Part shown: positions 20,843 through 54,868 of the stretch, one piece after another
How the letters are laid out: each line of letters begins with the position of its first letter
How positions within the stretch are numbered: the stretch's first letter is position 1
Source of the DNA: an uncultured Verrucomicrobiae bacterium
GTDB lineage: Bacteria; Verrucomicrobiota; Verrucomicrobiia; Limisphaerales; Palsa-1400
Length of the DNA: 64,000 nt
NCBI GenBank assembly: GCA_963707025.1
Contig: CAVPOM010000012.1
Coordinates: 352,001-416,000 of the forward strand
Direction of reading: 5' to 3'
Notes under the pieces: generated by a model
Database searches by the model: none
What the model was told of the DNA's origin: nothing
What the model saw: the letters and a program-made list of their open reading frames with translations, nothing else
Position numbers and translations under genes: made by a program

Positions 20843-21331
20843 ATGAATATATTATTCCGGTCTATAGCGCTGGCGGCGTTGGCCACGGCTTTAACCTCCG
20901 GCTGTGCTTCCGACAAGCTGCACCGTCCTGATTCCATCGCCATTGTGCCCAAGACCTCATTCTCCGTGCCGGTGGATCTGGTCTTCGTGTCCAAAGAGAA
21001 CTTCCAGGACATTATGGCTTATGATGTGGACAAATACTGGAGCCCCAATGATCCGGTCCGCAAGGCCGCCGATAAATTCGAGGTCACCGTTTCCGGCGGC
21101 AAGGCGATGCCCGCGGCACTGGTGATTGACGATGGCGTTTGGGCCAAATGGCATGGGAGCGGTGTGGCCCACGTGGTCGCCATTGCCGATCTCCGGGGCG
21201 ACGACTTCAAAGGATTGGGCCGCCTGGATACGCGGCGGGCTGATATTGACTTGAAGGATAAGTTTGTGGATAAAACCGTTGTCGTGGAAATCCAGGACAA
21301 AGCCGTAAAAATAATAACCCTCAAGAAATGA
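20843..21331 (+). CDS. Lipoprotein, probable divergent TssJ-like outer-membrane subunit
   Basis: LTSGC lipobox; 162 aa; VPVDLVFV…YW…VVAIAD pattern; only lipoprotein candidate in the T6SS locus. Confidence 0.55.
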   Translation: MNILFRSIALAALATALTSGCASDKLHRPDSIAIVPKTSFSVPVDLVFVSKENFQDIMAYDVDKYWSPNDPVRKAADKFEVTVSGGKAMPAALVIDDGVWAKWHGSGVAHVVAIADLRGDDFKGLGRLDTRRADIDLKDKFVDKTVVVEIQDKAVKIITLKK

Positions 21332-21421
21332 CAGCCATGGCGCAACGGTTCTCCCGGCTAATGTCCGTTGCGCCGCCCTCCCAAGCCCCCGCCGGAGCGC
21401 GGGCTGTTGCCTGGTTCCACC

Positions 21422-24400
21422 ATGAGCGATTATAGGGATTACGAGGTGTTCAAGCAGTTGGGCGGCGATATTCGCTCTGAAATCGTTTTGGCGCGAAAAC
21501 CGGGTTCCAAGCGTGTCGTTCTTCTCAAAACGCTGAAATTGGAGACGCTGTCGGCGGGCGTCGGCGCGTTTATGGAGCCCGGGTGCCCGCCTTCGAGGAG
21601 TTGGGCGGCGACGCCCGGATCCCTTACATCGAGGCGATCAAGGCCCAAGGCGCCGCCGCGCGCGTCAGCAACTCCCACATGGCGCCGATTCACGACCTGT
21701 TCCCCACGGAGGAAGGCGTCTGTTTTGCCACCGACTTCTATGAGAACGGTTCGCTCAGAAACAAGATTCGTTTAAACCAGCCCAACCACCGGGTGCTGCA
21801 AAACGTCATCGGCGGCATCCTGCATGGTTTGTCGTGCTTAAGATCGGTCGCCCATCGCGGGCACGGCAGCCTGCATACCGACAATGTTATGCTCGGCGGC
21901 GGTCCGGGAACGCCCCTGCGGGAATGTCCTGTCTTCCTGACCGATGTGGCTCCCATCACGGCGCAAAGCCCCGCGGAGATGGAGACGGAGGACCTTCATG
22001 CCGTCGGGCAAATCCTTTACCAGTTGGTCATGCGCAAGGTGGAAGACCGCAAGGAAGGTTTTCCCTTCCCGGTCCGCTCTTCGCCGGAATGGGACGGGCT
22101 GGGTGACAAGGACGGATTCTGGCTGCGCCTCTGCAACCGGTTGCTGGATCCCGACCTGGCGCCCGGCGCCGAATCGCCCGAAGCCCTGCTGCGGGAAATT
22201 GGCCGGCCCGCCTCGCGCAAGCCCATTCTGATTGCGGCAGGCCTGTTGCTCGCTGCGGCGGCCGGTATCGGGGTCTGGCTGGTCATCCCCCGCAAGACCG
22301 TTATTCTGCCGCCTCATTTGACCATTGTCTCGATGACCCCAAGCGACGGGAGAGTAACAAATGGGCAGACGATGACCTGGCAATTCAAGCTCGATCATCC
22401 GGGTGGGCCGATTTCCGCGCCGCAATTGCATCAAGAATTGAAGCCGGATGCGGATGGTCTTTACACCTTTGCCACCACTCCGAGCCTTGGCGCGCCGGCC
22501 GGGCGCACCAACATCTTGATTTCAGATGGCGGGGCGCTCTCGACCAATCTGGCCTTCGAGATTGTTCCGCCGCCGTCGCCTTACCTGAGCATGGACTCGA
22601 CGATTCCGGGTGACAGGAGAGTGATGATTGGGCAGACAATGACGTGGAAATTCAGGGTCGCGAATACGGCCGGGCCGATTTCCGCGCCGCAATTGCATAT
22701 AGAATTGAAGCCGGATGCGAATGGTCTTTACACGCTGACCAATGTTCCGAGTCCTGGCACGCCCACGGGCCGCTCCTACATCTTGATTTCGGATGGAGGG
22801 ACGCTCTCGACCAATCTAGCCTTCGAGATTGTTTCGCCGCCGCCGCCTTACCTGGCCATAGTCTCGATGGTTCCGAATGACGGGAGAGTGATCATTGGGC
22901 AGACAATGACGTGGAAATTCAGGGTCGCGAATACGGCCGGGACGATTGTCGCGCCGCAATTGAATCAGCAACTGCAGCCAGATGCGAACGGTGTTTACAC
23001 GCTTGCCAACACTCCGAGTCCTGGCGCGCTTGTGGGGCGCACCAACATCTTGATTTCGGATGGAGGGACGCTCTCGACCAACCTAGCCTTCGAGATTGTT
23101 TCGCCGCCTCCGCCTTACCTGGCCATAGTCTCGATGGTTCCGAGTGACGGGAGAGTGATGATTGGGCAGACGATGACCTGGAAGTTCAAGGTCGCGAATA
23201 CGGCCGGGACGATTGTCGCGCCGCAATTGAATCAGCAATTGCGCCCAGATGCGAACGGTGTTTACACGCTTACCAATGCTCCAAGCCCTGGCACGCCCAC
23301 GGGCCGCTCCTACATCTTGATTTCGGATGGAGGGACGCTCTCGACCAATCTAGCCTTCGAGATTGTTTCGCGGCCGGCGTCTTACCTGACCGTAGTCTCG
23401 ATGGTTCCGAGTGACGGGAGAGTGATGGTTGGGCAGACGATGACCTGGAAGTTCAGGGTTGCGAATACGGCCGGGACGATTGTCGCGCCGCAATTGAATC
23501 AGCAATTGCAGCCAGATGCGAACGGTGTTTACACGCTTACCAATGCTCCAAGCCCTGGCGCGCCTGTGGGGCGCACCAGCATCTTGATTTCGGATGGAGG
23601 GACGCTCTCGACCAATCTAGCCTTCGAGATAGTTTCGCGGCCGGCGTCTTACCTGACCATAGTCTCGATGGTTCCGAGTGACGGGAGAGTGATGGTTGGG
23701 CAGACGATGACCTGGAAGTTCAGGGTTGCGAATACGGCCGGGACGATTGTCGCGCCGCAATTGAATCAGCAATTGCAGCCAGATGCGAACGGTGTTTACA
23801 CGCTTGCCAACACTCCGAGCCCTGGCGCGCCTGTGGGGCGCACCAGCATCTTGATTTCGGATGGAGGAACGCTCTCGACCAATCTAGCCTTCGAGATTGT
23901 TTCGCGGCCGGCGTCTTACCTGACCATAGACTCGATGGTTCCGAGTGACAGGAGAGTGATGATTGGGCAGACGATGACGTGGAAATTCAGGGTCGCGAAT
24001 ACGGTCGGGGCGATTTCCGCGCCGCAATTGCATATAGAATTGAAGCCGGATGCGAACGGTCTTTACACCCTGACCAATGCTCCGAGTCCCGGCACGCCCA
24101 CGGGCCGTTCCTACATCTTGATTTCGGATGGAGGGACGTTCTCGACCAATCTAGCCTTCGAGATAGTTCGGCCGCCGCCGCCCGCCCTGACCGTCCAATC
24201 CAGCAACCCAGCCAACGCCGAAGCCGGAACGCTGATTACTTGGATTTTGTCGGTTGACGTCGGCCTCTTTCCCGAGCGTCCGGACTGCTCGGCCAAATCC
24301 TCCAATCCCGAACTGATTCCCGATCAGAGTCTGACCGCCAATTTGGCCCCGGCGGGCAATGGGAAATACACATTAACTGTGACGGCCCAATCCAGCAAAG

Positions 24401-26334
24401 GAACGAACGGCTCCGGCCAAATTGTCATTCAGGCGAATGTTCCGGGAAGTGAAACCGCGACGACAAACCTGGCTTATCATATTGTGCCTGTTCCGCTGCC
24501 GGAATTGAGACTAATGAATCCATTGCCGCTGGTCCTGGCAGCCGATTCCAACTCGATCCCGCTGCGCTTCGCGTTGAGCGATGGGAGGGTGTCTGCCCAA
24601 GAGCTGGGCTTCTCCGTGGATCTCAGTCCCAGGAACATTCTTGATCAGTCCAACCAAATTGACGGCTCCATCCGGTGGGTGACGCTCACGCGCCTGCCCG
24701 GAACCAACGGCTTAGTCACCATCAAAGCCATTGTTATTGCGGGCGACCGAACCAACAGTGCCAGCTATAAACTTACGGTGGAGGCGGTCAAGCCGCCGGC
24801 CCTGGTGCTGGCCGGCTCCGCCAACACCGATCTGGATGTGAATGCCGCCAGCGAGATGGCGCTCATCCCATGCAGCACACCGGATTCCAAACAGCTCCAC
24901 ATGGAGATTCTGGGAATAAAAATTATGCCGGCAAATTCGCCGCTTCTGGACACCAACGGCATCAAGTTCGAGCCTGGGCAGGCGCCGGACACCAACCGCG
25001 GCTTCATTGTGTTGCAGCCCAACCGCGGCTATGTCGGCACAGCCACGGTGACCGTCCGCGCCACCGCGGCCGGCGCGACTCCGGCCCAATTTGCCATCGG
25101 GTTGACCGTCGGCGGTGACATTCACCCCCCCAAAATCAAACTTTCCGCAGACGCTATGACGCTGGAACAAGACCAGACCAACCAAATTGGCGTGACGGTG
25201 GACGACGAGTATTCGCCAGCGGGCTTATCGTGGGAGGTCTTATCCCCTCCGCAGAGCTTCGTGTCTGTCAAGCCGGACATGCCGCAGCGCATCGTGACCC
25301 TCACCGGCCAGGCGCCGGGAAAGGCGACCGTTGCCGTCCGCGCGACCGCCCGCAACGGCAGCAACAGCACCGCCAATTTGACGGTCAATGTTCTTCCCGC
25401 CGAGCCGCCTCAATTCCCCATTTTTCCCGACAGCCCGGTCCAGTACCCCAAGGGCCTCCCGGTCAAGATTCAGATTGCCGACAATGCGACGCCGCCGGGG
25501 GCCATCCGCCTGGACTTCCCCGGATTATCCTGGGAGAAGACGAATTGGACCCGGACTACAAATGTGGGGGCCAACCATGTCGAGCTGACGCTCAACCTGA
25601 GCGGACCGCCGGAGGAGGACGCAACCGGGCAGACTTTTGAAATCACCGCCACCGATTTGGCCGGCCATGCCGCCACAAAACGGCTGGAGTTTGTCTTCCC
25701 TCCACGATCGAATTTGTACACCAATGACGCGACGGGCATGGTCCTGGCCTGGGTGAAGGGCTTGCCGGAGACAACCGGCGCCGCCTGGCCGGTGGACGGC
25801 CGCAGCGGCGGTGGCTGGGTCGGCAAGTACGAGGTGATGCAAGGGCAGTTCGCAAAGGTGCTGGGGACCAATCCCAGCGCGAACCAGGGCGACCCCAATT
25901 TTCCGGTGGAGAACATGAGCCTGGCGCAGGCCAGCGAGTTTTGCGATAAATTGACTGCGGGAGACCCCAACCTCCGAGGCTGGCGTTATGCCTTGCCCTC
26001 TGAGCAGCAATGGCTCTGGTTTGCCGGGAAGCAGCCGCCCATGAACGCCAACGGGAATTTCACCAATTTCGCCAATTACCAGATGAGCGGTTTCGGCAAG
26101 CCCATTGCCGTTGGCTCGCTGGAGTCCAACAGGTTCGGCCTTTACGATGTCTTTGGCAATGTCGGTGAATTGACCGGAACACGCAATCCGGGCAACGCCA
26201 AATATCAAGCTTACAAGGGAGGGAGTTTTAGACAAACCAGCCCCGCCTTGGCTCCAGAGTGGCCTGGATACACCGATAAACCCGAAAACAACATCGGCTT
26301 CCGCGTCGTCCTGGTGCCGGTGGCGGGGAAATAG
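21422..26334 (+). CDS. Pseudokinase-TM-89-aa repeats-Ig-like-FGE/SUMF1 fusion (about 1637 aa; one frameshift near 21580)
   Basis: YEVFKQLGG…VVLLK (from 21422), HGSLHTDN, TDVA, EDLHAVGQILYQL; TM ILIAAGLLLAAAAGIGVWLV; C-terminal GKYEV, FPVENMS, LPSEQQW, NRFGLYDVFGNVGE, KGGSF, GFRVV. Confidence 0.85.
22315..24180 (+). repeat. 7 tandem 267-bp (89-aa) intragenic repeats
   Basis: GQTMTW…ISDGG.LSTNLAFEIV occurs 7 times; 267-bp period (22330, 22597…). Confidence 0.92.
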
Positions 26335-35366: not shown

Positions 35367-36212
35367 ATGAGTGAAACCATACTGAATGAAGCTGAGTGGG
35401 CTGAGTACTCGGCGGCGCGCCTCAAGGCGGTGTGGGTGGATTTTGCGGAGGCCGCGCCGGAGCAGCGCGCGCAGTATTTGAAGGAGGAACTATCCCGCGC
35501 CATCAAGCCGATACCCGGCGGTTACCGCAAGAACTACCTGGGGCGGTTGCGCATGAAGTTCCCGGCTTTTGCGCCGGCGGCGGCGCCGGCGCGGGCTGAG
35601 CCGGCCGACGACACCACGCCGGTGGAAACAGCCCCCTACGCGGAGCTTGTCCAGGCCTTGCTGCTTCGCATTGGCGCCATGAAGGCCGATGAAAAAGCAG
35701 ACTTGGCCCGGCAACTCGGACCGGTCCTGCCATTTCCAAAGCCCGCCCCGGTGGCGGCCCCGGCCCCGGCAGGCCACGCCAAGGATCGTGAAGCGCTGGA
35801 GGCGGCTTTGAACAATTTCGCGATGCTGGAAAACCTGGGCTGGAGAATCTGGAAGGAAATGGCCCCGCAAGGCGAGGTGAAGAAGGAGGGAGATCTTAGC
35901 AACCAGTCCATGGATTACTTCCGGGGCAAGAACGAGGTTCTTCCCCAGTTGAAAGAAACCATGGTCAGGAACCGGATGGTGATCGGAGCTCTGCTGATGG
36001 CGATCCCCGGAGGGCTGCAAAAATATGCCAACGATTTTTATGGCACTTTCAGTCCTGACTACATTACGGCCGCCTTCGGCACCAGCGAGAAGAAATGTTG
36101 GTCCGAGTATGTCAAGCTGGCCAAGCAAGACTTTCCGATCGCCCAGGCCATCAGCTTTAAAATCAGGGGCTATATCGGCCAGTATGCCGAGGGCGTGATG
36201 AAAAAATCCTGA
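35367..36212 (+). CDS. Hypothetical T6SS-associated protein; C-terminus resembles the Fha/TagH C-terminal domain, no FHA domain
   Basis: GALLMAIPGG…FSPDYI…KKCWSEY resembles the Fha C-terminal pattern (ALxA…FxP…KAxxWxxY); ends 2 nt before tssK. Confidence 0.55.
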   Translation: MSETILNEAEWAEYSAARLKAVWVDFAEAAPEQRAQYLKEELSRAIKPIPGGYRKNYLGRLRMKFPAFAPAAAPARAEPADDTTPVETAPYAELVQALLLRIGAMKADEKADLARQLGPVLPFPKPAPVAAPAPAGHAKDREALEAALNNFAMLENLGWRIWKEMAPQGEVKKEGDLSNQSMDYFRGKNEVLPQLKETMVRNRMVIGALLMAIPGGLQKYANDFYGTFSPDYITAAFGTSEKKCWSEYVKLAKQDFPIAQAISFKIRGYIGQYAEGVMKKS

Positions 36213-36214: not shown

Positions 36215-37582
36215 ATGTCACCACAAATTCACTGGCACGAGGGACTGTTCTTGCAACCCCATCATTTGCAAATGATGCAGCGGGGCATCGGGCTGCGGGC
36301 CGAGTCGGAATGGAAACTGGTCTGGCCCTACGCTTACGGGGTGGTGGAAGCGACTTTGTTGCGTGACGATTTGGAGGACATGCGGGTGCGTTTTGCCAAG
36401 TTGCGCGTCATCATGCCCGGCGGGACGGAGGTCAGTTTCCCCGAGGCCGCCGAATTGCCGGCCTTGGACATACGGCCCATGTTTGCCCGGCCCGGCATCA
36501 AGTTTTTCGATGTCTTTTTGGGAGTGCCGCTGTGGATGAAGGATCGAGCCAACACCTTCCGGCCCGAACAGCAGGCTGATCCCCGCGTGAAGCTGCTCTA
36601 CCGCCTCAAGGAGGCTTCCTGCCCGGATGAAAACACCGGGGAGAATCCAAAGGACATCCAGTTTAGAATGGTCAACGCCCGTTTGATGTTTGATTTTGAG
36701 GACCGGAGCGACATGGAGGTTTTGCCGTTGCTGCGCATCAAGAAAGGCGTGGGAGATGACGAGGGCCGGCCGCGGCTGGATCCGGAGTTTGCCTACCCCT
36801 CGCTGGTGCTCAATGCGTCGCCGGTTTTGCGCGACTTGGTTCGCGCCTTGACCAGCCAGGTGGATGCCACCCGGGACGAACTGGACCGGCAATTGCACAA
36901 GGGTGGCATCGGGCTGGAACAAAAGGTGGAAATGACCGCGCGGCTGATGCTGTTGAGCCGGTTCTCGGCCAAAATGCTGTCGCTGGTCGAGGCTCCCAAC
37001 GTGCCGCTTTATGGCGTTTACCTGGAACTGCGGACGTTTCTGGCGGAGTTGGCGGCTTTTCGGCCGGGCCAGGCCGTGTTTGCGGCGGCGGCCTATGATC
37101 ACGAGAATCCGTATCCGGTTTTCAAGGAATTAGACATAAAAATCCGGCGCGAGATCAAACCGGCGGGGGGTGTGTTTCTCAAGGTGCCCTTTGAGATGAC
37201 GGCGCAGAAGACGGCGCAGATCCCCGTGGCCAAGCTGACGAGCGAGCACTTTACCAAACCCAACGCCTATTACCTGGCGGTCAAGACCAAGGCGGATCCG
37301 ACCGCCCTGGCGCGGTATGTCGAGGACGGCCACAAGTTTAAGCTGATGCCCTTGAGCATGTGGAGCGCGGCGATCTTTGGCATCACCCTGCAGGAGCAGC
37401 GGATTCCGCCGCTGGAATTTCCCAGCCAGGCGGGCCTCTACTACTTCCTTTTGCAGGTCAAGGACAACGCGGCGCGCTGGGATCAGATTCAGAACGAAAT
37501 GGCCATGGCCATCAATTATAAACAGGCGGACTTGAATCTTTCGGACGCGGAATTTACTTTATACATGACGGTGCCATCCTGA
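36215..37582 (+). CDS. tssK: T6SS baseplate subunit TssK
   Basis: IHWHEGLFLQPHHLQ, PYAYGV, IMPGGT, YDHENP. Confidence 0.92.
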   Translation: MSPQIHWHEGLFLQPHHLQMMQRGIGLRAESEWKLVWPYAYGVVEATLLRDDLEDMRVRFAKLRVIMPGGTEVSFPEAAELPALDIRPMFARPGIKFFDVFLGVPLWMKDRANTFRPEQQADPRVKLLYRLKEASCPDENTGENPKDIQFRMVNARLMFDFEDRSDMEVLPLLRIKKGVGDDEGRPRLDPEFAYPSLVLNASPVLRDLVRALTSQVDATRDELDRQLHKGGIGLEQKVEMTARLMLLSRFSAKMLSLVEAPNVPLYGVYLELRTFLAELAAFRPGQAVFAAAAYDHENPYPVFKELDIKIRREIKPAGGVFLKVPFEMTAQKTAQIPVAKLTSEHFTKPNAYYLAVKTKADPTALARYVEDGHKFKLMPLSMWSAAIFGITLQEQRIPPLEFPSQAGLYYFLLQVKDNAARWDQIQNEMAMAINYKQADLNLSDAEFTLYMTVPS

Positions 37583-37614
37583 GCAGGGGCATCTGTCTGC
37601 CGCCGGCGCGACGA

Positions 37615-38406
37615 GTGAAAACTGAGCAACCATTTGATTGGGGAGGACAGGAAGGGCGCAAGGAATCGGCCGCACCCCGCAGGCGCCCGGCGCGGGAGGA
37701 GGAGAGTCCCGCGCCCTCCTATGTGGATCTGGTGGAGCCTCTCTTCCAGTATATCTGCAAGGTGAACCGGGGCGCGAAATCGGTGAGTCCGGTCACGGGG
37801 AACCTGGCGGTGGTGCGGGGCGATGTCGAGAACATTCTGCAGAAAATATCGGCCAAGGCCAACAAGGACGTGACTCTGGCCCGGCTGCACGCGAAAATGG
37901 AAAAGCCGCTGGTGTATTATGTGGATTCGGTCATTGAGCAGAGCAACCTGACGATTGCGGCGGAATGGGGCCAGCAGCGGCTGGCGGCGATTCGCTGGAA
38001 CGATCTGGCCGGCGACCAGGCTTTTTTCAATCTCTTGGATGCGGAGTTGGCGGCGCAATCGGAAAGTTCGGAGCAGGCTCTGGCCGTATTCTATCTCTGT
38101 CTGTGCCTTGGGTTCACCGGCATGCACGCCGGCCAGCCCGTCGCCATTAACGGCCTCATCAGCCGGATCGCGCCGCGCATTCGTTCGCTGGTGGAGAGCG
38201 ACCTGAACGCGCGGATTTGCGAGTTGGCGTATGAGGTGCATCGGCCCTTGCCGGCGCCGGTGGGCAGCCGCATCGGGATTATCGTGCTGGTCTTTGTCTT
38301 CGTCACCATCTCGGTGTTGGTGGTGTATTATTCACTCTATATTTCGGCGACCAGCGACTTGCGCACTGCCGTGGATGCCGTCATCGCTCACTCCCCCCCG
38401 TCCTGA
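37615..38406 (+). CDS. tssL: T6SS membrane subunit TssL/DotU (no OmpA domain)
   Basis: YYVDSVI, AGDQAFF, VFYLCLCLGFTG, single C-terminal TM. Confidence 0.88.
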   Translation: MKTEQPFDWGGQEGRKESAAPRRRPAREEESPAPSYVDLVEPLFQYICKVNRGAKSVSPVTGNLAVVRGDVENILQKISAKANKDVTLARLHAKMEKPLVYYVDSVIEQSNLTIAAEWGQQRLAAIRWNDLAGDQAFFNLLDAELAAQSESSEQALAVFYLCLCLGFTGMHAGQPVAINGLISRIAPRIRSLVESDLNARICELAYEVHRPLPAPVGSRIGIIVLVFVFVTISVLVVYYSLYISATSDLRTAVDAVIAHSPPS

Positions 38407-38433
38407 GCGCCGATTGACTCACTTTTGAATTCC

Positions 38434-41400
38434 ATGGACGAACAAAAACCAGGCCCCGTTGAATGGTCCGTCGGCAGCGGTTTGGGCGTTGCTGCCGTGC
38501 TGACTGCCGGCTTGACCCGGAAGTGGTGGATCAGCTTGATTTTGCTGGGATTGCTCCTGCTGGTGGTGGTGGGCTACATTGCCTGGCGCCTGTGGAAACG
38601 CCGCCGCAATGAACAAAAGTTTTCCGGCGACATGGAGCAGCAGTCCGGCAATGCCAATGTGCGCAAGGCGGAGCAAAAGGCGCAGTTGGACCAATTGCGG
38701 CGCGCTTTCCAGCAAGGCATCCTCGTTTACAAGCAACGCAAAAAAGACATCTATTCGGTTCCCTGGTATCTCATGATCGGGACGCCCGGCAGTGGAAAAA
38801 CCGAAGCGATCCGGCATTCCGAAATTGGTTTTCCGCCGGGTTTGACGGATCCGATGACCGGGGTTGGCGGGACGATCAACATGAATTGGTGGTTCACCAA
38901 TTATGGAGTCATCCTGGACACCGCCGGCAAAATGGTGTTCCCGGAGGCGGGCGGCGGCGGCCAGAGCAACGAATGGGACGAATTCCTCCGGCTGCTGCGC
39001 AAGCATCGCCCGGCCTGTCCGATTAACGGCCTGTTCCTGGCGCTGGATGTGGACAAGATGATCAAGGACACGGGCGAGGCCATCTCCAAAAAGGCCAGCC
39101 AGGTGGCCCAACAATTGGATCGGGTGCAGCGGGCGCTGGACGTGCGTTTTCCGGTTTATGTGCTGGTGACCAAGAGTGATTTTCTGACGGGCTTCAAGGA
39201 ATACTTCGACGGGATTGACGATCCGCAACTGCAAAATCAAATATTGGGCTGGTCCAATCAAGCTCCGCTGGACGCTCCGGTGGACACCGATGCCATCGAA
39301 GGGTACCTCCGGGAATTGGTGGAAATCATCAAACGCCGCCGCCTGGCGGTCATTCGCGCCCCCGTCAACCTGGATCTGCGAGAGAACCGGCGCCTGGACT
39401 GCACCGACGCGATGTTTGCCTTTGCGGAGAGTCTGGAGCGGCTGATTCCGCGTTTAAAACGTTACCTGCAAATCATCTTTTCCTCGGGCGAGTTTTCGGC
39501 CAAACCGGTCTTTTTGCGGGGCATCTATTTCACCTCCTCCATGCAGCAGAACGGCGATTTGGACGAAGCTTTGGCGGAATTCATGGGCATCAAAGTGACC
39601 GAACTGCCCCCGGCCAATGTCCAGGAAAAGGAAAAGTCCTATTTTCTGAGAGACGTGTTTATTGACAAGGCGTTTCAGGAGCGATTGGTGACCAGCGCTT
39701 CCAACACCCGCCGCATGCGTCGCAACCGCCTGTTGATTCTGTCCGGCCTGACGGTCCTGATCCTGGGATCCCTGGTGACTTTCTCCCTGCTGGGTCATGG
39801 CGCGTTGGACCGGAGTGTGGGCAAGGACAAAGTGATCTGGGACGAAGCCACCAACCAATGGGTGCTGCCGCCCTGGGCCCCCGGATCGAGTTTTTGGCAT
39901 CCGGTGGTTGATTTGTCCAATGGCAATGACTGGCGCTACACGGGCGGCGAACCGCTTTCGTCCAAGTTGACCAACAGCCTGGTGGATTTCCTTGGCATGG
40001 TCAAGGACCGTGTTAGCCTGGCCGTCCAGCAACATTCCCTTGATCTTCCGGCCCTTGCGCGGACTGCGGGGAGACCTGAAATTCCCGGAAGGCCAGCGGG
40101 TGCTGGTGGAACGCAGCGTGGTGCTGCCGTTGCTGGAGGGCGCGCGTTACAAAATGTCCCGCCTGGAGGTTTCCGCCCCCCAAGACACCGAAGGGGTCAT
40201 CCGGTTGCGCAAAGCGCTCGAGTGCCTGGTGCAAACTCAGGCGGATATTGACGCCGGGCTGGGTTCTTTGTCCAATGCGGTGGTGCAGGAGAAGCTGGCC
40301 TCTTTCGTTACGCCCCTGCTCCAGTTTGTCGTGAACACGAACCTCCCCATCAATTCCAGTTTGCTGGAGGCGTGCGCGTGGACTTACTCCAGCAGCGGCG
40401 CCGGAGCCAAGTCCTGGCCGCCCAAAGCCTTGTCGGGCGGCACCAATTTGGCTTCCGATTTGGCCATCAACACCGGATTGGATTGCCTGATCGCCCAAGT
40501 CCGCAAGAACCAGCAGCAAGTGGAAGGGCACGCTCAATTGCTCGCCGCCGTTTGCGCCAGTTTATCAGCGTTGGCGCAGGCGGAAGACACGTTGAACGCC
40601 GACGCCGTCAACGATTGCGCGTTGACCCGGGAGCATTTTGAGGCCTGGCAGGCGGCGGTGAAAGATCTGCGCTCGGCCCAGAAGGAGGCTGCGCAGCAGC
40701 GCGTGTTGGACATTTCCGCCTCCGCCGGCCTTCTGCGGGCGGCCGCCAACAAGATTGAACTGGAAAACGGCGCTGCCTCCGGCGAGGCCTTTAAGGAAAT
40801 ACGGCGGGGCGCGGACGCCGGGGCCAAGACGGACAAGCGTCCGTTGTTCGGCGAGATTACCAACAAGTGCCAGGTCGCGGTGGGCGGCATGCAAAGCAAG
40901 GTGGAGAGCACGCTGGCCAAATACATGGGATCCCTGTCCAATTGGGATAACGATTTCCTGGCCACCGGCAGCAGCGGGGTCAAACCCTATTTTGAGCAAC
41001 GCGACGATCTTTATCAGAACGCCTTTGTTCTGCGCAATCCCACCGCGGCGGTGCCGGTCGGAACGCTTCAGAAGACGCTGGTCAACTGGCGCCAGGGGCG
41101 GGACAGCATCAGCGCGCAAATTGAAAGCTATAAAGGGCCGTTAAAGCCCCAGTTGCAGCGGGTCTGTCAATGCGCGATTGACGAGTCGGACAAGCGGGGT
41201 CTGGACGGTTTATTGTCCAACTACTGCGCCAGGGCCGAGGCGAATTTGAGCGATTACTTTAATGCCAGCACGGTTTCCTTTGACCGGATCACCGAGGCGC
41301 ACGCCTTTTTCACCAATCTGGACAGCGATCTTGGATTGCAGAGTTTCCGGGAATTGCCGCCCAGATGGCAGGACAAACTGCAAAAACTCCACAACGACGA

Positions 41401-42295
41401 CGCCGACGCCACCAAAAAATCGGTCAGCAAAGCCTACACCAACTGGCTGGCGGGCCAATTGTCCGCCCGCGGCGGCGGACCCGACAGCGACAACCCGCTG
41501 CAGCCCTACCTCGACTTCCGCAAGCGATGGGATAATGTCACCAATCAATTCAACAGCGATGCCGTCAAGTATTTTTCCAAGGAATTGGGCGAGCAATTCC
41601 CGCAATGGGCGGCGAAAGAGGCGAGAAACCGCCTGGATGAGGGCGTCAAGTTTTGCAACGACTGGCTCAACCAGAACACGGGTTTTCCGGTGCTCCTCGG
41701 CAGCGCCACGCCAAGGACCCCGGAACAAGTCGCCTTGCTGAAGAGGCAACTGGACCTGCGCGCCAACGAATTCAAGCAGGTTCAGGACGGTGACCAAACC
41801 CTCGCTTTTAAGAGCTTCGCCAATCGCGTGTCGGTGCTGTCGCAGGTTGTCGCCGTGCTGGTGCCGGACCCCGGGCGTCCGGCCAGGCATACCGTGGACA
41901 TCCACCCCGTCACCGGTGACGCCGCCAACCAATGTCCCTACCTCTACCTGACCACCTCGGGAGCCAAAGCCCAGCGCTTGACCCTCGGCCGGAAACGCGA
42001 TCCATCGGTCGCGCTGTCCGACTTGACCGGGGCCTTGGAGATCAAAGTGACGAGCGGTCCGGATCCGGACACCCCCGGGGCCGGGGTTTTTTACATCAAC
42101 GAATGGAAGAGTTGGGGGGCGTTGAATCTCATCAATCTGGCCAACGTGCGATTTGAAGGTGGCAAGTGGATCGTGCCGATTCCTGTCAAGAATTCCGACG
42201 GCTCCGACATTGGCGCCGTTCACGTCGAATTGGAATTCAATCCCCCGCTGCCTTCCCCGGAACAGTGGCAGCGCCTGAACCCGCCGCCGCCATGA
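38434..42295 (+). CDS. tssM: T6SS membrane subunit TssM/IcmF (about 1286 aa; one frameshift near 40020)
   Basis: PWYLMIGTPGSGKT, WWFT, LDTAG, PINGL, FPVYVLVTKSD..GF, FLRGIYFTS, SYFL; periplasmic half continues in the 39992-42295 frame. Confidence 0.9.
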
Positions 42296-45200
42296 GCGAT
42301 TTCTACAAGGATTTTCTGCGCGAACCCGGCCGCCTGCCCAGTCAGACGCCGGGGCCGCGCATTACTTTGGGAGCGCTGGGCAAGCATCCCGGCTGGGACG
42401 ACCACATTGACGGTTTGCTGGGCACCGAAACGCTCGCGCTCTTCAAGAATTTTTTTTATATCCAGGGCATCGGGCGGGAAATTGACTCGGGCGCGTGGGA
42501 CAAGCCGGAAATCGCCGGCGACCTGATTGCTTTTGATCATTTCCTGATGTGGGTTCGCGGCGACCAGTTCCTGCTGGGGCGCCTCTGGGCCTCGTCCGAC
42601 GGCCGCGGACGGACCAAGTATCCCATGATCCTCTGCGCCCAATGCAACGGACTGCCTTTGGGCTGGGCGTTGCAACACATCCTCCCCAAGCTCGACCAAA
42701 TGCGCGACGCCTGCCGGAGCGCCCGGACCGCCGATGAAGTGCGCCAGATCATCCTGAGCGCGCAGGCCGAATTGCGGGAGAGGGCCGCCTTCGGGCCCAT
42801 TGGCCCCGAAGCAGAAGCGTCCCTTGATCGGGCGGCATTCCTGGCCGGGCCGGAGCTGGGGCCGGAGCGCATGGGTTTGATGCGGATTCTGCACGAGTTG
42901 GACTCCAATTTTTTCGCTTACAAGAGGGCCAGGTCCGGCAAGACCATCGGCGCCGACGTGCGCCCCCAGCACATCCGGGTTCCTCGCAATGCCGGGTCTC
43001 CGGCGGAATCGCTCTGGGCTTGGCGGGAGTTTTTTAATTTGCTGTTCCGACGAGACCTGCCGATGCTCTTCGTGGCGCCGGCAGGCAAATCGTGGCTGGA
43101 TATTTGCGCGGGGGAGCCGTCGCTCAACGAAATCTATCCATTGCGGGTCCAGTCGGTCGGCCTTGCCAGCAGCGTTCCCTATGAAATTGGCCCTGAAATC
43201 AAATCCTCCTGCGCCGAACTGGCCAGCCAGTTTGAGACGGGCCATGTCGTGCCGTCGGGGCAGACCGAAATCATCAGAAAAGCGGACCTCAAGCCAGCCG
43301 CCCCAAGCGGAACCTGGGACACGGCGCCAGCCGCGAAGCGATTCAACTGGAAAATCCTCGGCGCAGGAGGCGGAGGGCTGATTCTGCTGCTGCTGGTTTG
43401 CGTCCTTTGGCCCGGGCGCGGCAAGCATCCAACAACCCTGTCACCACCGCAGAAAGTGGAAACCAACCAACCGCCAGCGCCAAAGGCGCCTCCTCCGGAT
43501 ATGACCCCCCCGGTGGCTGTGTCCAAGACAGTTGGGGCTGTGGCAGGGAACCCGGTGCCCGTCAATCTGGAAGGAACGGATCCCAAAGGCCGTCCTGTCA
43601 CCTTTCAGATCGTCGCTCCGCCGTCGCACGGTCGCTTGAGCGGCGATCCGCCGAGTCTTCGCTATTCGCCGGAACCCAATTTCACGGGAACCGATTTTTT
43701 CACTTTCAAAGCGGTGCGCGACAAGGTCGTTTCCGAGCGGCGACCATTACCGTGCGCGTTGCTTCCCGCCCCCTGCCGCCGCAGTTGTCGGCTATGAAAG
43801 ACCAAACGATTGAGACGGGCGACAGCTTCAAGCCGTTGCCGTTCACGGTGACCGGCGACAAGACTCCCGCGGAACGGTTGACCACCAGGCTGGAGTCATC
43901 GGATCCCCTCTGGCTGCCGGCCAGTTCGTTAAGTTTGGATCGCAACGGCAGCAATTGGGCCGTGCGCATCAATCCTTCTCCGAGCCGCGCGGGCGCGGCC
44001 GATCTGGCCATTATCGCCTCGGACGGGGACGGCAACAGCGCCACCAACCATGTTCGGGTGGCGGTCACCTCGGCGGCTTGGTCTGCGCCCACCCTTGTAC
44101 TGCAGGGACCGGCACGGCAAGTCATCCGGGCCGGTTCGGAAATCGCCCCTGTTTCCTTCCAGGCGTCGGACACCAAGACCCCGGTTGACCGGTTAACCTG
44201 GTCGTTCGAGTCGTCCAACCCGGCGCTGCTTCCGGCGGCCGGGATTCAAGTCCGTCAGGAAGGGGCGGTGTGGCGGGTGGCGGCGGCGGCGGCGCCCGGA
44301 CAAACGGGAACCGCGTCGGTTACGGTGAGCTTGAAAAATGAGGGCGGTTTGGCCGCTACCAATCAGTTTCTGCTCGTGGTGCGAAAGCCGCCGGCCTTCA
44401 ATCAGGCCTTGGAAAAGGTGCAAATTGCGCGGGGCCAAACTTATCGCGGGGCCGTCAAAGCGAGCGACGCGGATCTTCCGGCGGCGCAACTCCAATTGAA
44501 GGCGCGCGTGGAACCCCTCGCTTGGGTCGCCCCCAACGTGCTCGGAGACGGCGCGGAATGGACCGTGGAGCTGGCCGCCCGCGACGCCGCCCCAGGGCGC
44601 GGCAAACTGATCCTGGAGTTGAGCGACGGCGAATTAACAGCCACCAACGAGTCCGTCATCGAAGTGGTCCCGCCGGAAGCGCCAGTGTTTGTCACCGCTC
44701 CGCAGGGGATCACGGAAATCCCGGCGGGAAAAACCTCGCCGCCCCTTGCCTTTGTCATCTCCAACAAGAATGGCACTCCAGACCAGATCCAATTTTCCGT
44801 TTCCTCCAACGATAAAAAGGCCATCCCGGACGAACATTTAACAGTCAGTTACGACGGCGGCTCCTGGCATTTGCAGATTACCCCCAATGACGGGGCCGCC
44901 GGACAGATCAGCTTGGACGCGGTGGCGAGCGACAACCTTGGAACGTCCGCCACCAACCGCTTCACCGTTGCAGTGGCTGCGTCCTCCGGGGTTCTTCGCA
45001 ATTCGCTGGGAATGGAGTTCGTTTGGGTGGACAACCTGCCCGGCACGGCGAAAGCGGGTTGGGACGCCGGACATCAAGGAGGCGGCTGGGTGGCCAAGTA
45101 CTTGGTCACGCAAAAAGACTTTTCAACCGTGATGCATGCCAATCCAAGCGCCTACAAAAGCGGAGGGGACTCGGCTCCTGTCGAAAGCATGAGTGCGGCG

Positions 45201-45593
45201 GATGTGGACGAATTCTGTCACAAATTGGCGGCTCAAGATCAAAGCAGCCGGCCTTGGCCGGCGGGGTGGTCCTGCCAGTTATTGACGCTGGAACAATGGA
45301 AATTCTGCGCTGCCAGCTCCCATGACGCCGATTGCATCCTGAGCACGCCGGACTTGAAGCGCCAGCATCCCGAGCGCGTCGGGTCTCTCGGCCCCAATGC
45401 ATTGGGACTCTTTGACGCCATCGGTAATGTCTATGAGGTCACTCTCGGCCCGGACAATGGCAAGCTGGTGGCCGGGGCCTGGTACTCGCAACCAAAGACG
45501 GCGGCGCTGGCCCTTAAATTCAGCTACCCGTTCACCCCGGGTTATTGGGCTGGCTTCCGCATCGCCATCCTGCCGGCCGTCCAAACTCCGTAG
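42292..45593 (+). CDS. TagF-like domain-TM-Ig/cadherin-like repeats-FGE/SUMF1 fusion (about 1100 aa; one frameshift near 43737)
   Basis: ALGKHPGWDDH, GRLWASSDGRGRTKYPM (TagF-type GK…D and SxDxxGRxYP motifs); TM; PPSHGRLSG..YSPEPNFTGTDFFTF; C-terminal NSLGMEF, VTQKDF, NALGLFDAIGNVYE, GFRI. Confidence 0.8.
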
Positions 45594-45598
45594 AACTT

Positions 45599-46721
45599 AT
45601 GAGCGCACCGTCCCAATACCTCGAACCTGTTTCTTCAGACGCCCCCTGCGGGGACGCCACCTCCGTCGGCAACCTGTGGCAACTGGATGGTCTGTTTACG
45701 CCTTCGGGGGCCGACTTGCTCAATTGGAAACCGGATTGGAAGGAAGTGACGAAAGTGGCGGAGAGGCTGCTGCCGAATTGCAAGCATGTCAAACTTGCCC
45801 TGATTTTTGGCGGCATGGCCATGCAAAAGGAGGGTCTGGGCGGTTTTCGGGACGGGCTGGGATTATTGCTGGGCTGGCTGGAGCGGTACTGGGACCATTT
45901 GTATCCCCAGTTGGACAAGGAACTGGCCGATCCTTACGAGCAAATGCTGGAAAGAATCAACGAATTGCGCAACCTGACCAACCAGGGCATCGGGGGCATC
46001 TCCGTGCTGGCTTGGCTCTATGGGACCACCATTTGCCGCTCCCGTTCCTTTGGCAACCTGAGTCTCCGGGCCGTGGCCATCGTTGCAGGCTCTGTCAAGC
46101 CGGTGGAAGGGGAAGCCGTGCCGACGGCGGGGGACACGCCGATGACGGCGGCCCAACTGGACGCGGCCTTCCGCGAGTTCCAGGAGGCCGAGCCGGATGA
46201 ACTGGCGGCGCAGATTCAGGCGGTCAAGGAATCCCAGGAAATCCTGGGCAAACTGGACGCGTTTATTTCGGAGAAGGCCGGTCCCGGGCGCGGTCCCAGC
46301 CTGGGCCCATTGGACCAGGCGCTGGAGTTGCTGGAGAAATGTCTGGGCTCGCAGGCCGGGGAGGCGGCTCCGGCGGCCGGGGCGGCCCCCGTGGCCGCCG
46401 GGGCGCGGCCAGCGGAGGCTCCGGCGGCCGGGGGAAAGATCAGTTCGCGCGGGGAGGCGCTGAAATCCATCGCGGCCATCTGCGAGTATTATCGGCGCTG
46501 CGAGCCCCTCCAGCCCGGTGCCGCTGCTGTTGCAACGGGCCGGGCGCCTGATCGAAATGGACTTTTTGCAAATTGTGGAGGATTTGTCCATTGAAGGCGG
46601 CGACCAGGCCCGGCGCCTGTTGGTGGGGGCCAAAAAAGGAGCCGGAAGAAAGCGCGAAATCTTGAAGAAATTGCTTGCAATTGACAACAGTTGCTGCCAA
46701 AGTATGGCTTATCGTATTTAA
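45599..46721 (+). CDS. tssA: T6SS TssA (ImpA N-terminal domain); frameshift near 46506, true 3' end uncertain
   Basis: LEPVSSDAPCG, PDW, KHVKL, LERYWDHLYPQLD; C-terminal ISSRGEAL…YYRRCEP[SSPV]PLLLQRA..LIEMDF. Confidence 0.9.
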
Positions 46722-46794
46722 CTGGCAGTGCGGTCGTTTGGCGCGCCTTGAGTGAGACGCGCCGGTCCACAGTCAACAATCAGATTGTCTTATT

Positions 46795-47304
46795 ATGGCC
46801 AAAAGTCAAAAATTCATCGAGAGGAACCGCGCCCCGCGGGTTCAAATTGCCTACGACATCGAAACCTTTGACGGGGCAAAGCGTGTGGAACTGCCCTTCA
46901 TTGTGGGCGTGATGGCCGATCTGTCGGGCAAGCCGGAGGACCCGCTGGCGCCGGTGGCGGACCGGAAATTCAGCGAAATAGACATGGACAACTTTGATGA
47001 CACGCTCAAGGCGGCCAAGCCGCGGGTGGCCTTTCAAGTGCCCAACACCCTGACCAAGGAAGGCAACCTGAGCGTGGCCATCACCTTTGACCGCATGGAG
47101 GATTTTTCGCCGGCGGCGGTGGCGCGCAAGGTGGAACCGCTGCGCAAGCTCTTCGAGGCGCGGCAGCGGCTGGACAATCTGCTCAGCTATGTGGACGGCA
47201 AGGCGGACGCCGAACAACTCCTGGCCGACATATTGGACAACAAGGCGCTGATGCAGGCGCTCTGCGCCGCCCCCAATCCGGCGAAAGAAGAAGAGAAAAA
47301 ATAG
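46795..47304 (+). CDS. tssB: T6SS sheath small subunit TssB/VipA
   Basis: RAPRVQIAYD, ELPFIVGVMADLSG, IDMDNFD, DFSP. Confidence 0.97.
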   Translation: MAKSQKFIERNRAPRVQIAYDIETFDGAKRVELPFIVGVMADLSGKPEDPLAPVADRKFSEIDMDNFDDTLKAAKPRVAFQVPNTLTKEGNLSVAITFDRMEDFSPAAVARKVEPLRKLFEARQRLDNLLSYVDGKADAEQLLADILDNKALMQALCAAPNPAKEEEKK

Positions 47305-47319
47305 CCACGAGGAGATTTT

Positions 47320-48819
47320 ATGGCAACCAACACGAAACTTCAAAAAGCGGCGGAGTCCCTGCAACAAGGAGACAGCAACCCGTTCGAGCAGCTTGTCAAA
47401 GGAACGGTCAAACCGCGGGGCGACGCCGAGTTGACGGCTGTCAAACAGGCGGTGCAAACCCTGGCAGAAAAGGCGCTGGAAGGGGTGGCGCTGGTCCCCG
47501 GCGACGCCATCCGCACCATCAAGTCCATCATCGCGGAAATTGACGCCAAACTATCCGAGCAGATCAACCAAATCATTCACCATCCTGATTTTCAGGCCCT
47601 GGAGAGCACCTGGCGGGGGCTGCACCACCTGGTGTTCAACACGGAGACGGACACGATGTTGAAGATCCGGGTGCTGAACGTTTCCAAGAAGGACGCCGCC
47701 AAGGACCTGAAACGATTCCCCGGCGCGGCCTGGGACCAAAGCCCGCTGTTCAAAAAGATCTACGGGGCGGAGTACGACATGCTGGGCGGCACGCCTTACG
47801 GCTGCCTGGTGGGGGACTATTTTATTGACAATACGCCCGAGGACATTGGATTTCTCTCCGACATGGCGAAAATCGCGGCGGCGGCGCACGCCCCGTTCCT
47901 GTGCGCGGCGGATCCGGGGATGGTGCGCATGGAGTCGTGGCAGGAATTGAGCCAGCCGCGGGACCTGGCCAAAATCTTCGACAGCCCGGCCCACGCGCAG
48001 TGGGCGGCCTTCCGCAAACAAGAGGATGCGGCCTATGTCGGGCTGGCCATGCCGCGGTTCCTGGGGCGGCTGCCCTACGGCACCAAGGCCAAGAACCCGC
48101 TGGATGAATTCGCCTTTGAAGAGGACACCGACGGCAAGGACCATGCCAAATTTCTTTGGAGCAATTCGGCCTTTGCCATGGCGGCGAACATTACCCGGTC
48201 CTTCAAGCAGTTTGGCTGGTGCACCCGCATTCGGGGCGTGGAGTCGGGGGGCACGGTGTCGGAGCTTCCCTGCTACACCTTTCCCACCGACGACGGGGGC
48301 ACGGACATGAAATGCCCGACGGAATTAGGCATCGGAGACCGGCGGGGAGCGGAGCTGGACAAGCTGGGTTTTATACCGCTCTACCATCGCAAGGGCACGA
48401 CGGACGCGACCTTTATCGGGGCGCAGTCGGTGTTTCAGCCGGGCAAGTATTATGATCCGGATGCGGAGGCCAATTCCAATTTGACGGCGCGGCTCTATTA
48501 TATGTTTCCCATCTGCCGGTTTGCGCATTATCTCAAGACGATGGTGCGGGACAAGATCGGGGCCTTCAAGGAACGGTCGGACATGGAGGCCTGGCTGAAC
48601 AATTGGATCGCCAATTACGTGCTGCTCAACCCGGACGCGGGGGAGCAGGCCAAGGCGGAAAAGCCGCTCTCCGCCGCGGAGGTGAAGGTGCAGGAAGTGC
48701 CGGGCAATCCCGGCTATTACACCGCGCAGTTCTGGCTGCGGCCCCATTATCAACTGGAGGGATTGAACGTATCCCTGCGGCTGACCTCCAAGCTGCCGTC
48801 GGTCAAGGCGGGCGGGTGA
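47320..48819 (+). CDS. tssC: T6SS sheath large subunit TssC/VipB
   Basis: HHPDFQALESTWRGL, AAAAHAPF, PRFLGRLPYG, RFAHYLK, LRPHYQLEG. Confidence 0.97.
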   Translation: MATNTKLQKAAESLQQGDSNPFEQLVKGTVKPRGDAELTAVKQAVQTLAEKALEGVALVPGDAIRTIKSIIAEIDAKLSEQINQIIHHPDFQALESTWRGLHHLVFNTETDTMLKIRVLNVSKKDAAKDLKRFPGAAWDQSPLFKKIYGAEYDMLGGTPYGCLVGDYFIDNTPEDIGFLSDMAKIAAAAHAPFLCAADPGMVRMESWQELSQPRDLAKIFDSPAHAQWAAFRKQEDAAYVGLAMPRFLGRLPYGTKAKNPLDEFAFEEDTDGKDHAKFLWSNSAFAMAANITRSFKQFGWCTRIRGVESGGTVSELPCYTFPTDDGGTDMKCPTELGIGDRRGAELDKLGFIPLYHRKGTTDATFIGAQSVFQPGKYYDPDAEANSNLTARLYYMFPICRFAHYLKTMVRDKIGAFKERSDMEAWLNNWIANYVLLNPDAGEQAKAEKPLSAAEVKVQEVPGNPGYYTAQFWLRPHYQLEGLNVSLRLTSKLPSVKAGG

Positions 48820-48920
48820 TCGCGCCGGAGATTTTCCGCTTGCGGTGCGAGGCGGGAAGGAAAAAACAACGATGCCTGCACCAGCATCGCAGCAAATCAG
48901 CAAAAGAAAGGCGGTAATTT

Positions 48921-49421
48921 ATGGCATTTAGTGCTTATCTTAAAATAGCAACGATCGAAGGCGAGGCCACGGCCAAGGGATACGAGAAAACCATTGAGTG
49001 TGATTCCTACAGCCATCTTCTGTCCCAGCACAGTGGCGGGAGCATGTCCGCCGCCGGCGGGCTGAGCGGCGGACGCGCCGATCATGGCGAGTTTGTCATC
49101 ACCCATTCGCTGGACAAATCGTCCCCGAAATTCAACTTGGCCTGCTGCACTGGCGAACCTCTCAAGGAGATCAACGTGGATGTCTTGCGGGCGACGGGCG
49201 AAGGGGCGGGGACAAAATTCATGAATTACAAAATGAGCGACGTGATCGTCAGTTCGGTTTCCCTGGCCGGCAACTCCAGGGGAGGCGAACCGCTGCCCAA
49301 GGAAGAGGTTCATTTCGCCTACGGCAAGATTGAATGGACCTACACGGAAATCGGCCACGATGGCAAGAAGAAGGGCGATGTCAAGACTGGCTGGAGCGTG
49401 ACCCAAGGCACCAAGGTCTAG
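48921..49421 (+). CDS. hcp: T6SS tube protein Hcp (TssD)
   Basis: AYLKI..IEGEA, DKSSP, E.V.FAYGKIEWTY, GW. Confidence 0.95.
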   Translation: MAFSAYLKIATIEGEATAKGYEKTIECDSYSHLLSQHSGGSMSAAGGLSGGRADHGEFVITHSLDKSSPKFNLACCTGEPLKEINVDVLRATGEGAGTKFMNYKMSDVIVSSVSLAGNSRGGEPLPKEEVHFAYGKIEWTYTEIGHDGKKKGDVKTGWSVTQGTKV

Positions 49422-49474
49422 CGGGTGGCGGAGGCCCTCACAAGCAGGGGTGAAAGGCCCGACCCGCACCGAAT

Positions 49475-54838: not shown

Positions 54839-54868
54839 AAAACCGCAACCCCTCAACCCCAGACCCGC

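Follow-up and report, generated by a model that had tools for sequence, protein, structure and literature searches.

Post-translational control of the T6SS (type VI secretion system) is known mainly from the relay of kinase, phosphatase and FHA protein of Pseudomonas, Agrobacterium and Serratia. In the threonine phosphorylation pathway of the Pseudomonas aeruginosa H1-T6SS, PpkA (TagE) crosses the inner membrane once, has a kinase fold of the Hanks type in the cytoplasm and is encoded with the secretion system, according to the parts of two studies that deal with it (PMC13713981, PMC13584744). Residues 127-359 of TagR were assigned to the FGE-sulfatase superfamily, and the passages on this protein model its FGE domain as binding the periplasmic part of PpkA and propose that a TagR dimer joins two PpkA (PMC13713981). 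A review of accessory factors of the T6SS from 2026 names TagR, in the part of its text considered here, solely for Pseudomonas H1 and Rhodobacter and with no fused form (PMC13584744). The locus described here lies in a stretch of 64,000 nucleotides (the window; positions 352,001 to 416,000 of contig CAVPOM010000012.1, assembly GCA_963707025.1) from an uncultured Verrucomicrobiae bacterium of soil, and the gene under study, at 21422..26334 (+), encodes a predicted pseudokinase. Receptor kinases with the order kinase, transmembrane (TM) segment and FGE domain are known, and so are bacterial membrane pseudokinases; here, the kinase fold is a conserved non-catalytic one and a TagR-type domain belongs to the same chain. 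The product is probably a trans-envelope sensor that controls the neighbouring T6SS through the binding of partners and not through phosphorylation.

When the locus is set beside the Pseudomonas pathway, an FGE-superfamily module is seen in both, as the free periplasmic sensor TagR, which works with TagQ and TagS/TagT, in the one and as a predicted ectodomain of the same chain in the window protein. In contrast to the PpkA pathway, the kinase fold of the window has neither the catalytic Asp nor an activation segment, and its cluster contains no FHA, PP2C_2 or canonical kinase gene. This likeness is one of description.

A preliminary description of this DNA, made from its letters, had proposed a kinase-like N-terminus that keeps the beta3-type Lys in VVLLK but in which HGS replaces HRD and DVA replaces DFG. 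These motifs were all recovered, VVLLK at 21515-21529 with the Lys codon at 21527-21529, HGS at 21862-21870 and DVA at 21943-21951, and a kinase fold is indicated by a family profile together with a predicted structure. Only these two approaches reveal the kinase; Pfam and NCBIfam searches with single sequences miss it. A phmmer search of the PDB with the domain of the orthologue P0004 returned marginal matches to Eph kinases alone (42 sequences, E 0.029-1.6). A profile made from an alignment of 14 N-terminal domains (A3) matched 868 PDB sequences at E <= 1, the best being StkP (E 4.3e-12), followed by ULK1, PDK1 and PknE. Apart from RNase L, a protein with a kinase-like domain, the best 60 of these 868 matches all bear the name of a protein kinase. 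The alignment of the profile with StkP places AVK on the beta3 Lys and HGNLKPGN on HRDLKPQN, and HMMER leaves the DFG-activation stretch of StkP unaligned to the family. Further, the AlphaFold2 model of residues 1-265 of P0004 reached a pLDDT of 85.0 and a pTM of 0.86, and Foldseek matched this model to at least 500 PDB entries at E <= 0.001. Among the matches listed, all are protein kinases or pseudokinases, such as Nek7 (9.7e-10), PknI, ULK2, the pseudokinase of Jak1 and the intracellular domain of Rv3910 (3ouk, TM-score 0.67/0.71).

The alignment of the 14 domains provides a view of what the family has kept. Its invariant positions are H146, G147, L149, N153, D189, G194, W222, W232 and C236. 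Lys36 is present in 13 of the 13 sequences that include the N-terminus, the catalytic-loop Asn153 in 14/14 and the Asp173 of the DFG position in 13/14. The position of the catalytic Asp is occupied by Asn148 (HGN) in 13/14 sequences and by Ser (HGS) in the window protein. An exhaustive family search yielded 760 cluster representatives at E <= 0.001, 484 of them at E <= 1e-10, and among the best 150 of the 760 the HRD position reads HGN in 118, HGD in five, HGG in four, HGS, HGA and HGE in three each and other motifs in three; in 11 the motif was not found by pattern, and HRD was found in none. The loss of the HRD Asp is thus conserved across homologues, and the possibility raised in the preliminary description that orthologues might have retained the motif found no support: because they lack HRD, the absence of the Asp is a conserved design of the whole family and not decay in one lineage. 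In the model of P0004, about nine residues separate Asp173 from the helix formed by residues 182-202, so that the activation and P+1 segment is absent. The glycine loop of the window protein reads QLGGDIRSE, and no GxGxxG is found there, in near orthologues or in the T6SS-linked members. The larger part of the domain, at 21583..22224 (+), comprises alphaC, the HGS of HGSLHTDN, DVA and a conserved LCNRLL helix, without an activation segment. Judged by profile and model, the N-terminal domain is a predicted Hanks-type kinase fold devoid of the catalytic Asp and of the activation segment.

Membrane-bound kinase folds of this kind have counterparts in other systems. Rv3910 (MviN) of Mycobacterium tuberculosis is likewise a membrane protein whose intracellular kinase fold misses catalytic features. 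An atlas of bacterial serine/threonine kinases (bSTK) reports, in the portion of its text used here, a deletion of the activation loop in the ActPs3 family alongside the MviN structure, and names FGE-sulfatase as a partner domain of the Proteo1 family (bioRxiv 10.1101/2025.01.12.632604). As that text presents them, the seven pseudokinase families of the atlas all show losses of the VAIK Lys, which range from 34% of CP1 to every member of five families, whereas the family of the window keeps the Lys and loses the HRD Asp. The atlas was built from homologues of Pfam Pkinase, a profile below whose reach the window family lies, and the portion of its text used here contains no T6SS or Planctomycetes-Verrucomicrobia-Chlamydiae (PVC) context. 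YukC/EssB of type VIIb secretion is likewise described, in the sections considered, as a single-pass membrane pseudokinase that forms a non-catalytic part of a secretion apparatus (bioRxiv 10.1101/2020.05.09.085852), but it belongs to another secretion system and another phylum and is without an FGE-like ectodomain. Canonical receptor Ser/Thr kinases with an FGE ectodomain show the same order of kinase, TM segment and FGE domain, but their catalytic motifs are intact and they pass the Pfam Pkinase profile. One of these is encoded on another contig of the source genome (C6, ~772,900-775,200, +) with GEGGCG, VALK, HRDIKPSN and DFG, in a gene that is frame-shifted between the catalytic loop and DFG. 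No published description of the pseudokinase-FGE T6SS family was found in the openly accessible literature, as distinct from subscription journals and supplements.

The preliminary description had treated 21422..26334 as a single open reading frame (ORF), which proved incorrect. The interval comprises two ORFs in different frames, one at 21368..21775 (135 aa) and the other at 21583..26334 (1583 aa). The first contains the ATG at 21422 and VVLLK, and its translation reads MSDYRDYEVFKQLGGDIRSEIVLARKPGSKRVVLLK...; the second contains HGSLHTDN and DVA and also encodes the membrane span, all of the repeats and the FGE domain. In this way, the N-terminal 52-54 residues of the pseudokinase are encoded in a different frame from the 1583-aa remainder. 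The coding signal in the G+C content of third codon positions (GC3) changes frame at ~21560, and the frame change itself (-1; one base fewer than in intact orthologues) was located at 21578..21586, in the sequence CCCGGGTGC. The two frames unite only when base 21583 is read twice, which corresponds to one base missing in the CCCGGG of this site. The first gene part, 21422..21583 (+), provides the N-lobe strands beta1-beta3, VVLLK and the onset of a disordered beta3-alphaC loop, and its translation is 71% identical to residues 1-45 of the intact P0004 (E 4.6e-13). A search with residues 1-245 of the pseudokinase found four proteins at E <= 0.001, the window's own included. The orthologues P0004 (1085 aa, 72% identity) and P0005 (1385 aa) start with MSDFRDYEVIE...VLLKALKLD... 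and run continuously into the part that the window encodes in the second frame; the orthologue of a genome of the same family (P0012 of G015, 985 aa) is also a single frame. Because these three proteins are continuous, the N-terminal piece belongs to the pseudokinase gene, and the window copy is one base short relative to them. The site of the change falls in the beta3-alphaC loop, where the pLDDT of the orthologue model is below 50 at residues 45-60. Programmed -1 frameshifting was considered and set aside: GAG CCC GGG TGC provides no X XXY YYZ slippery heptamer in the upstream frame, so the change is not thought to be programmed, and the orthologues are continuous without any shift.

The rest of the chain follows the architecture that had been proposed for it. 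One hydrophobic span, ILIAAGLLLAAAAGIGVWLVI, at 22225..22287 (+; residues 215-235 of the 1583-aa ORF), forms the single TM segment, as judged by hydrophobicity, and a similar segment occurs at residues 200-420 in 116 of the 150 family representatives under a crude hydrophobicity rule. The stalk that follows, at 22308..24182 (+), consists of seven tandem repeats with an exact spacing of 89 aa and pairwise identities of 62-97% (TRF: period 267 nt, 7.0 copies, 88% matches). That its length varies, as had been suggested, is borne out by the number of 89-aa units, which is seven in the window protein, three in P0004 and four in P0005; the stalk of the G015 orthologue is coiled-coil/TPR-like. About 500 further residues, at 24183..25677 (+), are beta-rich and probably form Ig-like domains. 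For these domains, the preliminary description is upheld only in part, since their Pfam matches stay below the cut-off (Big_9, E 8.5e-4, 20.6 bits against a cut-off of 23.6; a K319L-like PKD match also below it). The region is paralogous to the ectodomain of a neighbouring protein headed by a TagF fold (P0008), whose corresponding part passes Big_9 at 36.6 bits; residues 967-1580 are 31% identical to the product of window positions 43758-45578 (E 5e-34).

The C-terminal end of the chain, at 25678..26334 (+) including the stop codon, is an FGE-sulfatase-fold domain, and here the original assignment held: PF03781 matches residues 1432-1576, within the last ~215 residues, with an E value of 1.2e-9 and a score of 38.6 bits (cut-off 23.3). 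Its best sequence matches in the PDB, Treponema denticola variable protein 1 (TvpA; E 3.4e-7) and PorK/GldK, are non-enzymatic FGE folds. Formylglycine-generating enzymes use a pair of catalytic cysteines. The last 220 residues of the window protein contain one cysteine, which rules out the pair that true FGEs possess, and the domain is classed as non-enzymatic. The single TM segment that precedes this domain suggests that it is exported and would lie in the periplasm.

The T6SS core cluster is found at 36215..59925 (+) and contains, by Pfam, tssK, tssL, tssM, the TagF-TM-Ig-FGE gene, tssA, tssB, tssC, hcp, tssE, tssF, tssG, clpV and vgrG. With tssK at 36215 and vgrG at 58465, the full core set lies 10-38 kb downstream of the pseudokinase gene. 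The genome's matches to FHA (PF00498; four), Pkinase (PF00069; 24) and PP2C_2 (PF13672; one) all fall outside the window, PP2C_2 being the phosphatase family that was searched, and a Pfam scan of 37 window ORFs gave no match to ABC transporters. The gene at 20843..21331 (+), which lies directly upstream of that for the pseudokinase, encodes a 162-aa lipoprotein with the lipobox LTSGC. This lipoprotein is 29% identical to the product of the gene upstream of the G015 orthologue, and in four related loci (L018, which is the G015 locus, L019, L025 and L026) tblastn locates a homologue immediately upstream of the gene for the pseudokinase. It has no Pfam or NCBIfam match. An Atlas cluster of look-alikes (score 0.92) carries IglE_N, of a TssJ-like lipoprotein of Francisella, on 37% of its members, and this is a lead only for a TssJ/TagQ identity. 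A two-partner secretion pair (26623-35271, +) is encoded between the pseudokinase gene and tssK, in G015 as well as in the window; its TpsA-like protein has 2287 aa and 13.1 tandem units of 282 nt (28810-32498), is syntenic in G015 at 52% identity, and is accompanied by a transporter of the ShlB/FhaC type. The gene order in G015 is lipoprotein, pseudokinase-FGE, TpsA, TpsB, P0010, tssK, tssL, tssM, the TagF-headed FGE protein and tssA. Other features of the window include a 1454-aa protein at 16475-20839 (+), in which 339-nt units are repeated 8.0 times in tandem (16574-19285; 96% identity) and which has weak Pfam matches of Ig/fn3 type only, and an insertion-sequence-type integrase (HTH_21, rve, rve_3) at 890-1795 (+), near the left end of the window. 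The frames of tssE (49450-50781, +; 443 aa, the gp25 domain solely at residues 317-417) and tssG (52627-54666, +; 679 aa, best TssG-matching stretch 375-545) are unusually long, and they may carry N-terminal extensions or have their true starts further in.

The preliminary description passed over a second protein of the cluster, which has a TagF head and the paralogous ectodomain. TagF is reported to block assembly of the secretion apparatus and in Acinetobacter baylyi to be kept at the membrane by TagZ; the same study, in the part of it considered, finds TagF in clusters without Fha or a phosphorylation pathway in 22.0% of 741 contexts (bioRxiv 10.64898/2025.12.08.692957). The gene at 42292..45593 (+), between tssM and tssA and frame-shifted near 43730, encodes a TagF-fold domain, a TM segment, Ig-like (Big_9) domains and an FGE-like domain. 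Its product begins ...LGALGKHPGWDDH... and shares, over 324 residues, 34% identity with P0011, the intact counterpart in G015 (828 aa; E 8e-54). None of the 89 relatives found for this family has TagF_N among its precomputed Pfam domains, and the family profile, run against PDB sequences, finds FGE and TPR entries only and no TagF, so that a fold search was required. With a model of the relative P0203 (pLDDT 77.9), the top seven PDB matches, and all that are significant, are TagF structures (9t0n of A. baylyi, E 2.2e-8; 6iz8 and 2qnu of P. aeruginosa). Since the model matches TagF structures only, the protein appears to be a membrane-anchored TagF with an ectodomain paralogous to that of the pseudokinase. 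Compared with the TagF/TagZ pair of A. baylyi, the TagF of the window would itself be anchored in the membrane and carry a large periplasmic Ig/FGE ectodomain, and in the pseudokinase protein the kinase-fold head takes the place of TagF. The TagF-headed gene also follows tssM in the related loci L020, L022, L023 and L024.

A candidate for the cytoplasmic partner is encoded at 35367..36212 (+), immediately before tssK. This 281-aa protein (P0009) weakly resembles the C-terminal domain of TagH, the FHA protein of the T6SS, and is without FHA. In L016, L020, L021, L023 and L024, the gene that directly follows that of the pseudokinase is of the same family as P0009 and its G015 counterpart P0010. 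The match to T6SS_FHA_C is weak and occurs in 2/6 members of this family (best E 0.0016), and a relative with 48% identity, P0249, carries PF20232 (T6SS_FHA_C) in the precomputed table. Complex prediction for the G015 pair (pseudokinase residues 1-300 with P0010) gave 'weak support', with a score of 0.53 and 0.00 for the best control. The mark of this method was reached by 116/157 solved complexes and 2/215 mismatched pairs, but at scores <= 0.60 by just 18/157 solved complexes and by both of the passing mismatches. One of the three runs gave 0.00, agreement between runs was at least 0% of contacts, and the partner pLDDT was at least 69.

To examine the distribution of the family, its two best-conserved peptide patterns were used in a scan that took a single genome for each species and returned 11 related loci. 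Wherever a phylum is named, these belong to Planctomycetota or Verrucomicrobiota, and three are titled just 'bacterium'. T6SS core genes are found near the pseudokinase gene in 8/11 loci: within the fetched DNA of L016, L017 and L020-L024 (by tblastn, and by Pfam on 6/11), and 10-19 kb downstream in L018 (G015). In L016 and in five phycisphaeral loci (L020-L024), the pseudokinase gene stands directly before T6SS genes.

These arrangements can be accommodated in a mechanism in which the FGE-like domain, held by the stalk far from the inner membrane, would bind a ligand or protein of the envelope, as modelled for TagR. Binding by the ectodomain would then alter, through the single span, the oligomeric state or the conformation of the cytoplasmic pseudokinase, and this domain, acting as a docking surface, would recruit or release factors of T6SS assembly. 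Its most likely partner would be the FHA-less TagH-like protein, favoured because it is encoded next to the pseudokinase gene in most relatives, and the membrane-tethered TagF with its paralogous ectodomain could serve as the opposing brake. As the preliminary description already proposed, the signal would be passed without phosphotransfer. A more specific and clearly tentative proposal is that PVC bacteria fire the T6SS by a phosphorylation-free switch, made of a dead kinase as accelerator and an anchored TagF as brake, whose paralogous FGE-like ectodomains on length-variable stalks would sense the same event at the outer envelope, such as damage or an incoming effector, and act on the FHA-less TagH-like adaptor. 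In such a switch, the TagR-PpkA-Fha-TagF circuit of Pseudomonas would have been rebuilt without phosphotransfer.

Against control of the T6SS by a non-catalytic partner binder stand several observations, which are taken here together with the explanations that they favour. The preliminary description called for profile scans at both ends of the protein, and only that for the FGE-sulfatase domain was positive. PF00069 (gathering cut-off 31.7 bits) finds no match in the window protein at E <= 0.01, and it matches 2/14 relatives at E <= 1 (best E 0.013) and none of 45 further family members at E <= 1e-5. Both the model of the fold and the prediction of the complex used orthologues and not the window protein, and the result for the complex is weak on the predictor's own calibration. 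Since the Lys, Asn and Asp are kept, ATP binding or a weak, residual activity is possible, and the 5/150 representatives with HGD point the same way. HER3 has HRN and yet shows weak activity; in the case of the Rv3910 pseudokinase, PknB phosphorylates the domain and FhaA binds it. The protein could therefore be an atypical active kinase with slow phosphotransfer, or the substrate of one of the ~23 canonical kinases of the genome, read by an FHA protein encoded elsewhere. The conservation of Lys36, Asn153 and Asp173 and the 24 Pkinase and four FHA matches outside the window speak for this explanation, but 145/150 representatives are without the catalytic base, the activation and P+1 segment is missing, T6SS-linked members have a degenerate glycine loop and the cluster has no FHA or PP2C_2 gene, which together make it improbable. 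Other observations concern the link with the T6SS. No T6SS gene was found in the 5.6-17 kb fetched for L019, L025 and L026, all of which keep the upstream lipoprotein; in L019, PEGA, PRC and BON domains take the place of FGE, and for L026 Pfam gives no match at E <= 1e-4. A search with the pseudokinase found no match in any of five same-genus genomes (completeness 64-92%). Among the 121 representatives of at least 700 aa, an FGE-like domain (own HMM) is present in 56 and absent from 65, and Pfam, run on 45 of those 65, found domains that include TPR, PEGA, Ig, PRC and cadherin-like ones, or no domain at all. Because the ectodomains vary, the pseudokinase-TM module as a whole is not T6SS-specific. 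On a FastTree phylogeny of the 121 N-domains, from which sequences below 700 aa were excluded, FGE and other labels change 21 times, against 40.2 +/- 2.6 in shuffled labels (minimum 33 in 200 shuffles), a test in which kin share labels; the ectodomains, as read from these sequences, appear clustered on the tree and yet exchanged many times. The pseudokinase-TM module is thus a receptor chassis of general use, of which the proteins with FGE and a T6SS link make up one large part. The protein might be a general envelope sensor or anchor working with the upstream lipoprotein, or might serve the TpsA/TpsB adhesin pair, T6SS proximity being then a matter of locus history. The pair's position between the pseudokinase gene and tssK in the window and in G015, the varied ectodomains and the lipoprotein-pseudokinase pairs found without T6SS genes or an FGE domain agree with this. 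However, in L016 and L020-L024 no such pair separates the gene from the T6SS genes, and a TagF-fold protein encoded between tssM and tssA has a paralogous ectodomain, so this explanation is unlikely for the window protein. An immunity-type role, in which the FGE-like ectodomain would bind effectors and shield the periplasm instead of signalling, finds a precedent in FGE-like proteins that are reported to confer T6SS immunity (Lopez et al. 2021, as cited in the text of PMC13713981), but here the ectodomain is fused across the membrane to a conserved kinase fold, and in the paralogue to TagF, and the gene stands among core genes with no adjacent effector; such a role is very improbable.

Control of the T6SS by this protein is also to be weighed against the frame shift in the window copy. 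Within 25 kb, GC3 indicates changes of frame at ~21580 in the pseudokinase gene, ~40000 in tssM and ~43730 in the TagF-headed gene, tssM lying in two overlapping frames (38425..40251 and 39992..42295, +) with the switch near 40000-40050. The G015 counterparts of all three are unbroken (985, 1195 and 828 aa, respectively). One explanation, restricted to this genome, is that the gene is a recent pseudogene in a decaying T6SS locus and that the one-base deletions in the three genes are real. The accumulation of three changes in 25 kb beside intact orthologues favours decay, but there are no in-frame stops or other signs of decay, the GC3 coding signal is strong on either side of each shift, and the canonical kinase-FGE gene of contig C6 is likewise shifted, inside its catalytic core. 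The source genome is moreover a metagenome assembly of 18 contigs with 88% completeness, and in the single public run that contains this stretch, contigs of depth 3-5 span only 21300-21406 and 21774-22208, which leaves the site of the shift outside. A frame-switch estimator, which combines a codon log-odds score with pairs of abutting same-strand coding segments, gave 278 candidates in 5822 segments genome-wide, or 4.8 per 100, against 3.7 per 100 in 400 kb of the single-contig relative G009 and 2.2-5.2 in like-sized pieces of the source genome. This crude rate, not clearly above the control, counts against a very high uniform error rate and to that extent for decay, though the estimator does not discriminate the source genome from the control and allows no conclusion on assembly quality. 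The pattern of shifts, including that of the C6 kinase gene, suggests indel errors in the assembly, while three shifts in one T6SS locus could equally reflect recent decay; decay as the full account for this genome is given somewhat less than an even chance. With the pseudokinase gene, tssM and the TagF gene all shifted, the system may be inactive in this genome, or the assembly may contain indel errors.

The pseudokinase belongs to a large family that has so far no name, with its 760 cluster representatives. If control of the T6SS through a non-catalytic partner binder is correct, the fusion of a TagR-type domain to a kinase fold would provide a natural 'Rosetta stone' for the disputed contact between TagR and PpkA and a bacterial model of signalling by pseudokinases. 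It would also offer the first handle on how Planctomycetota and Verrucomicrobiota, bacteria with unusual envelopes, aim their T6SS.

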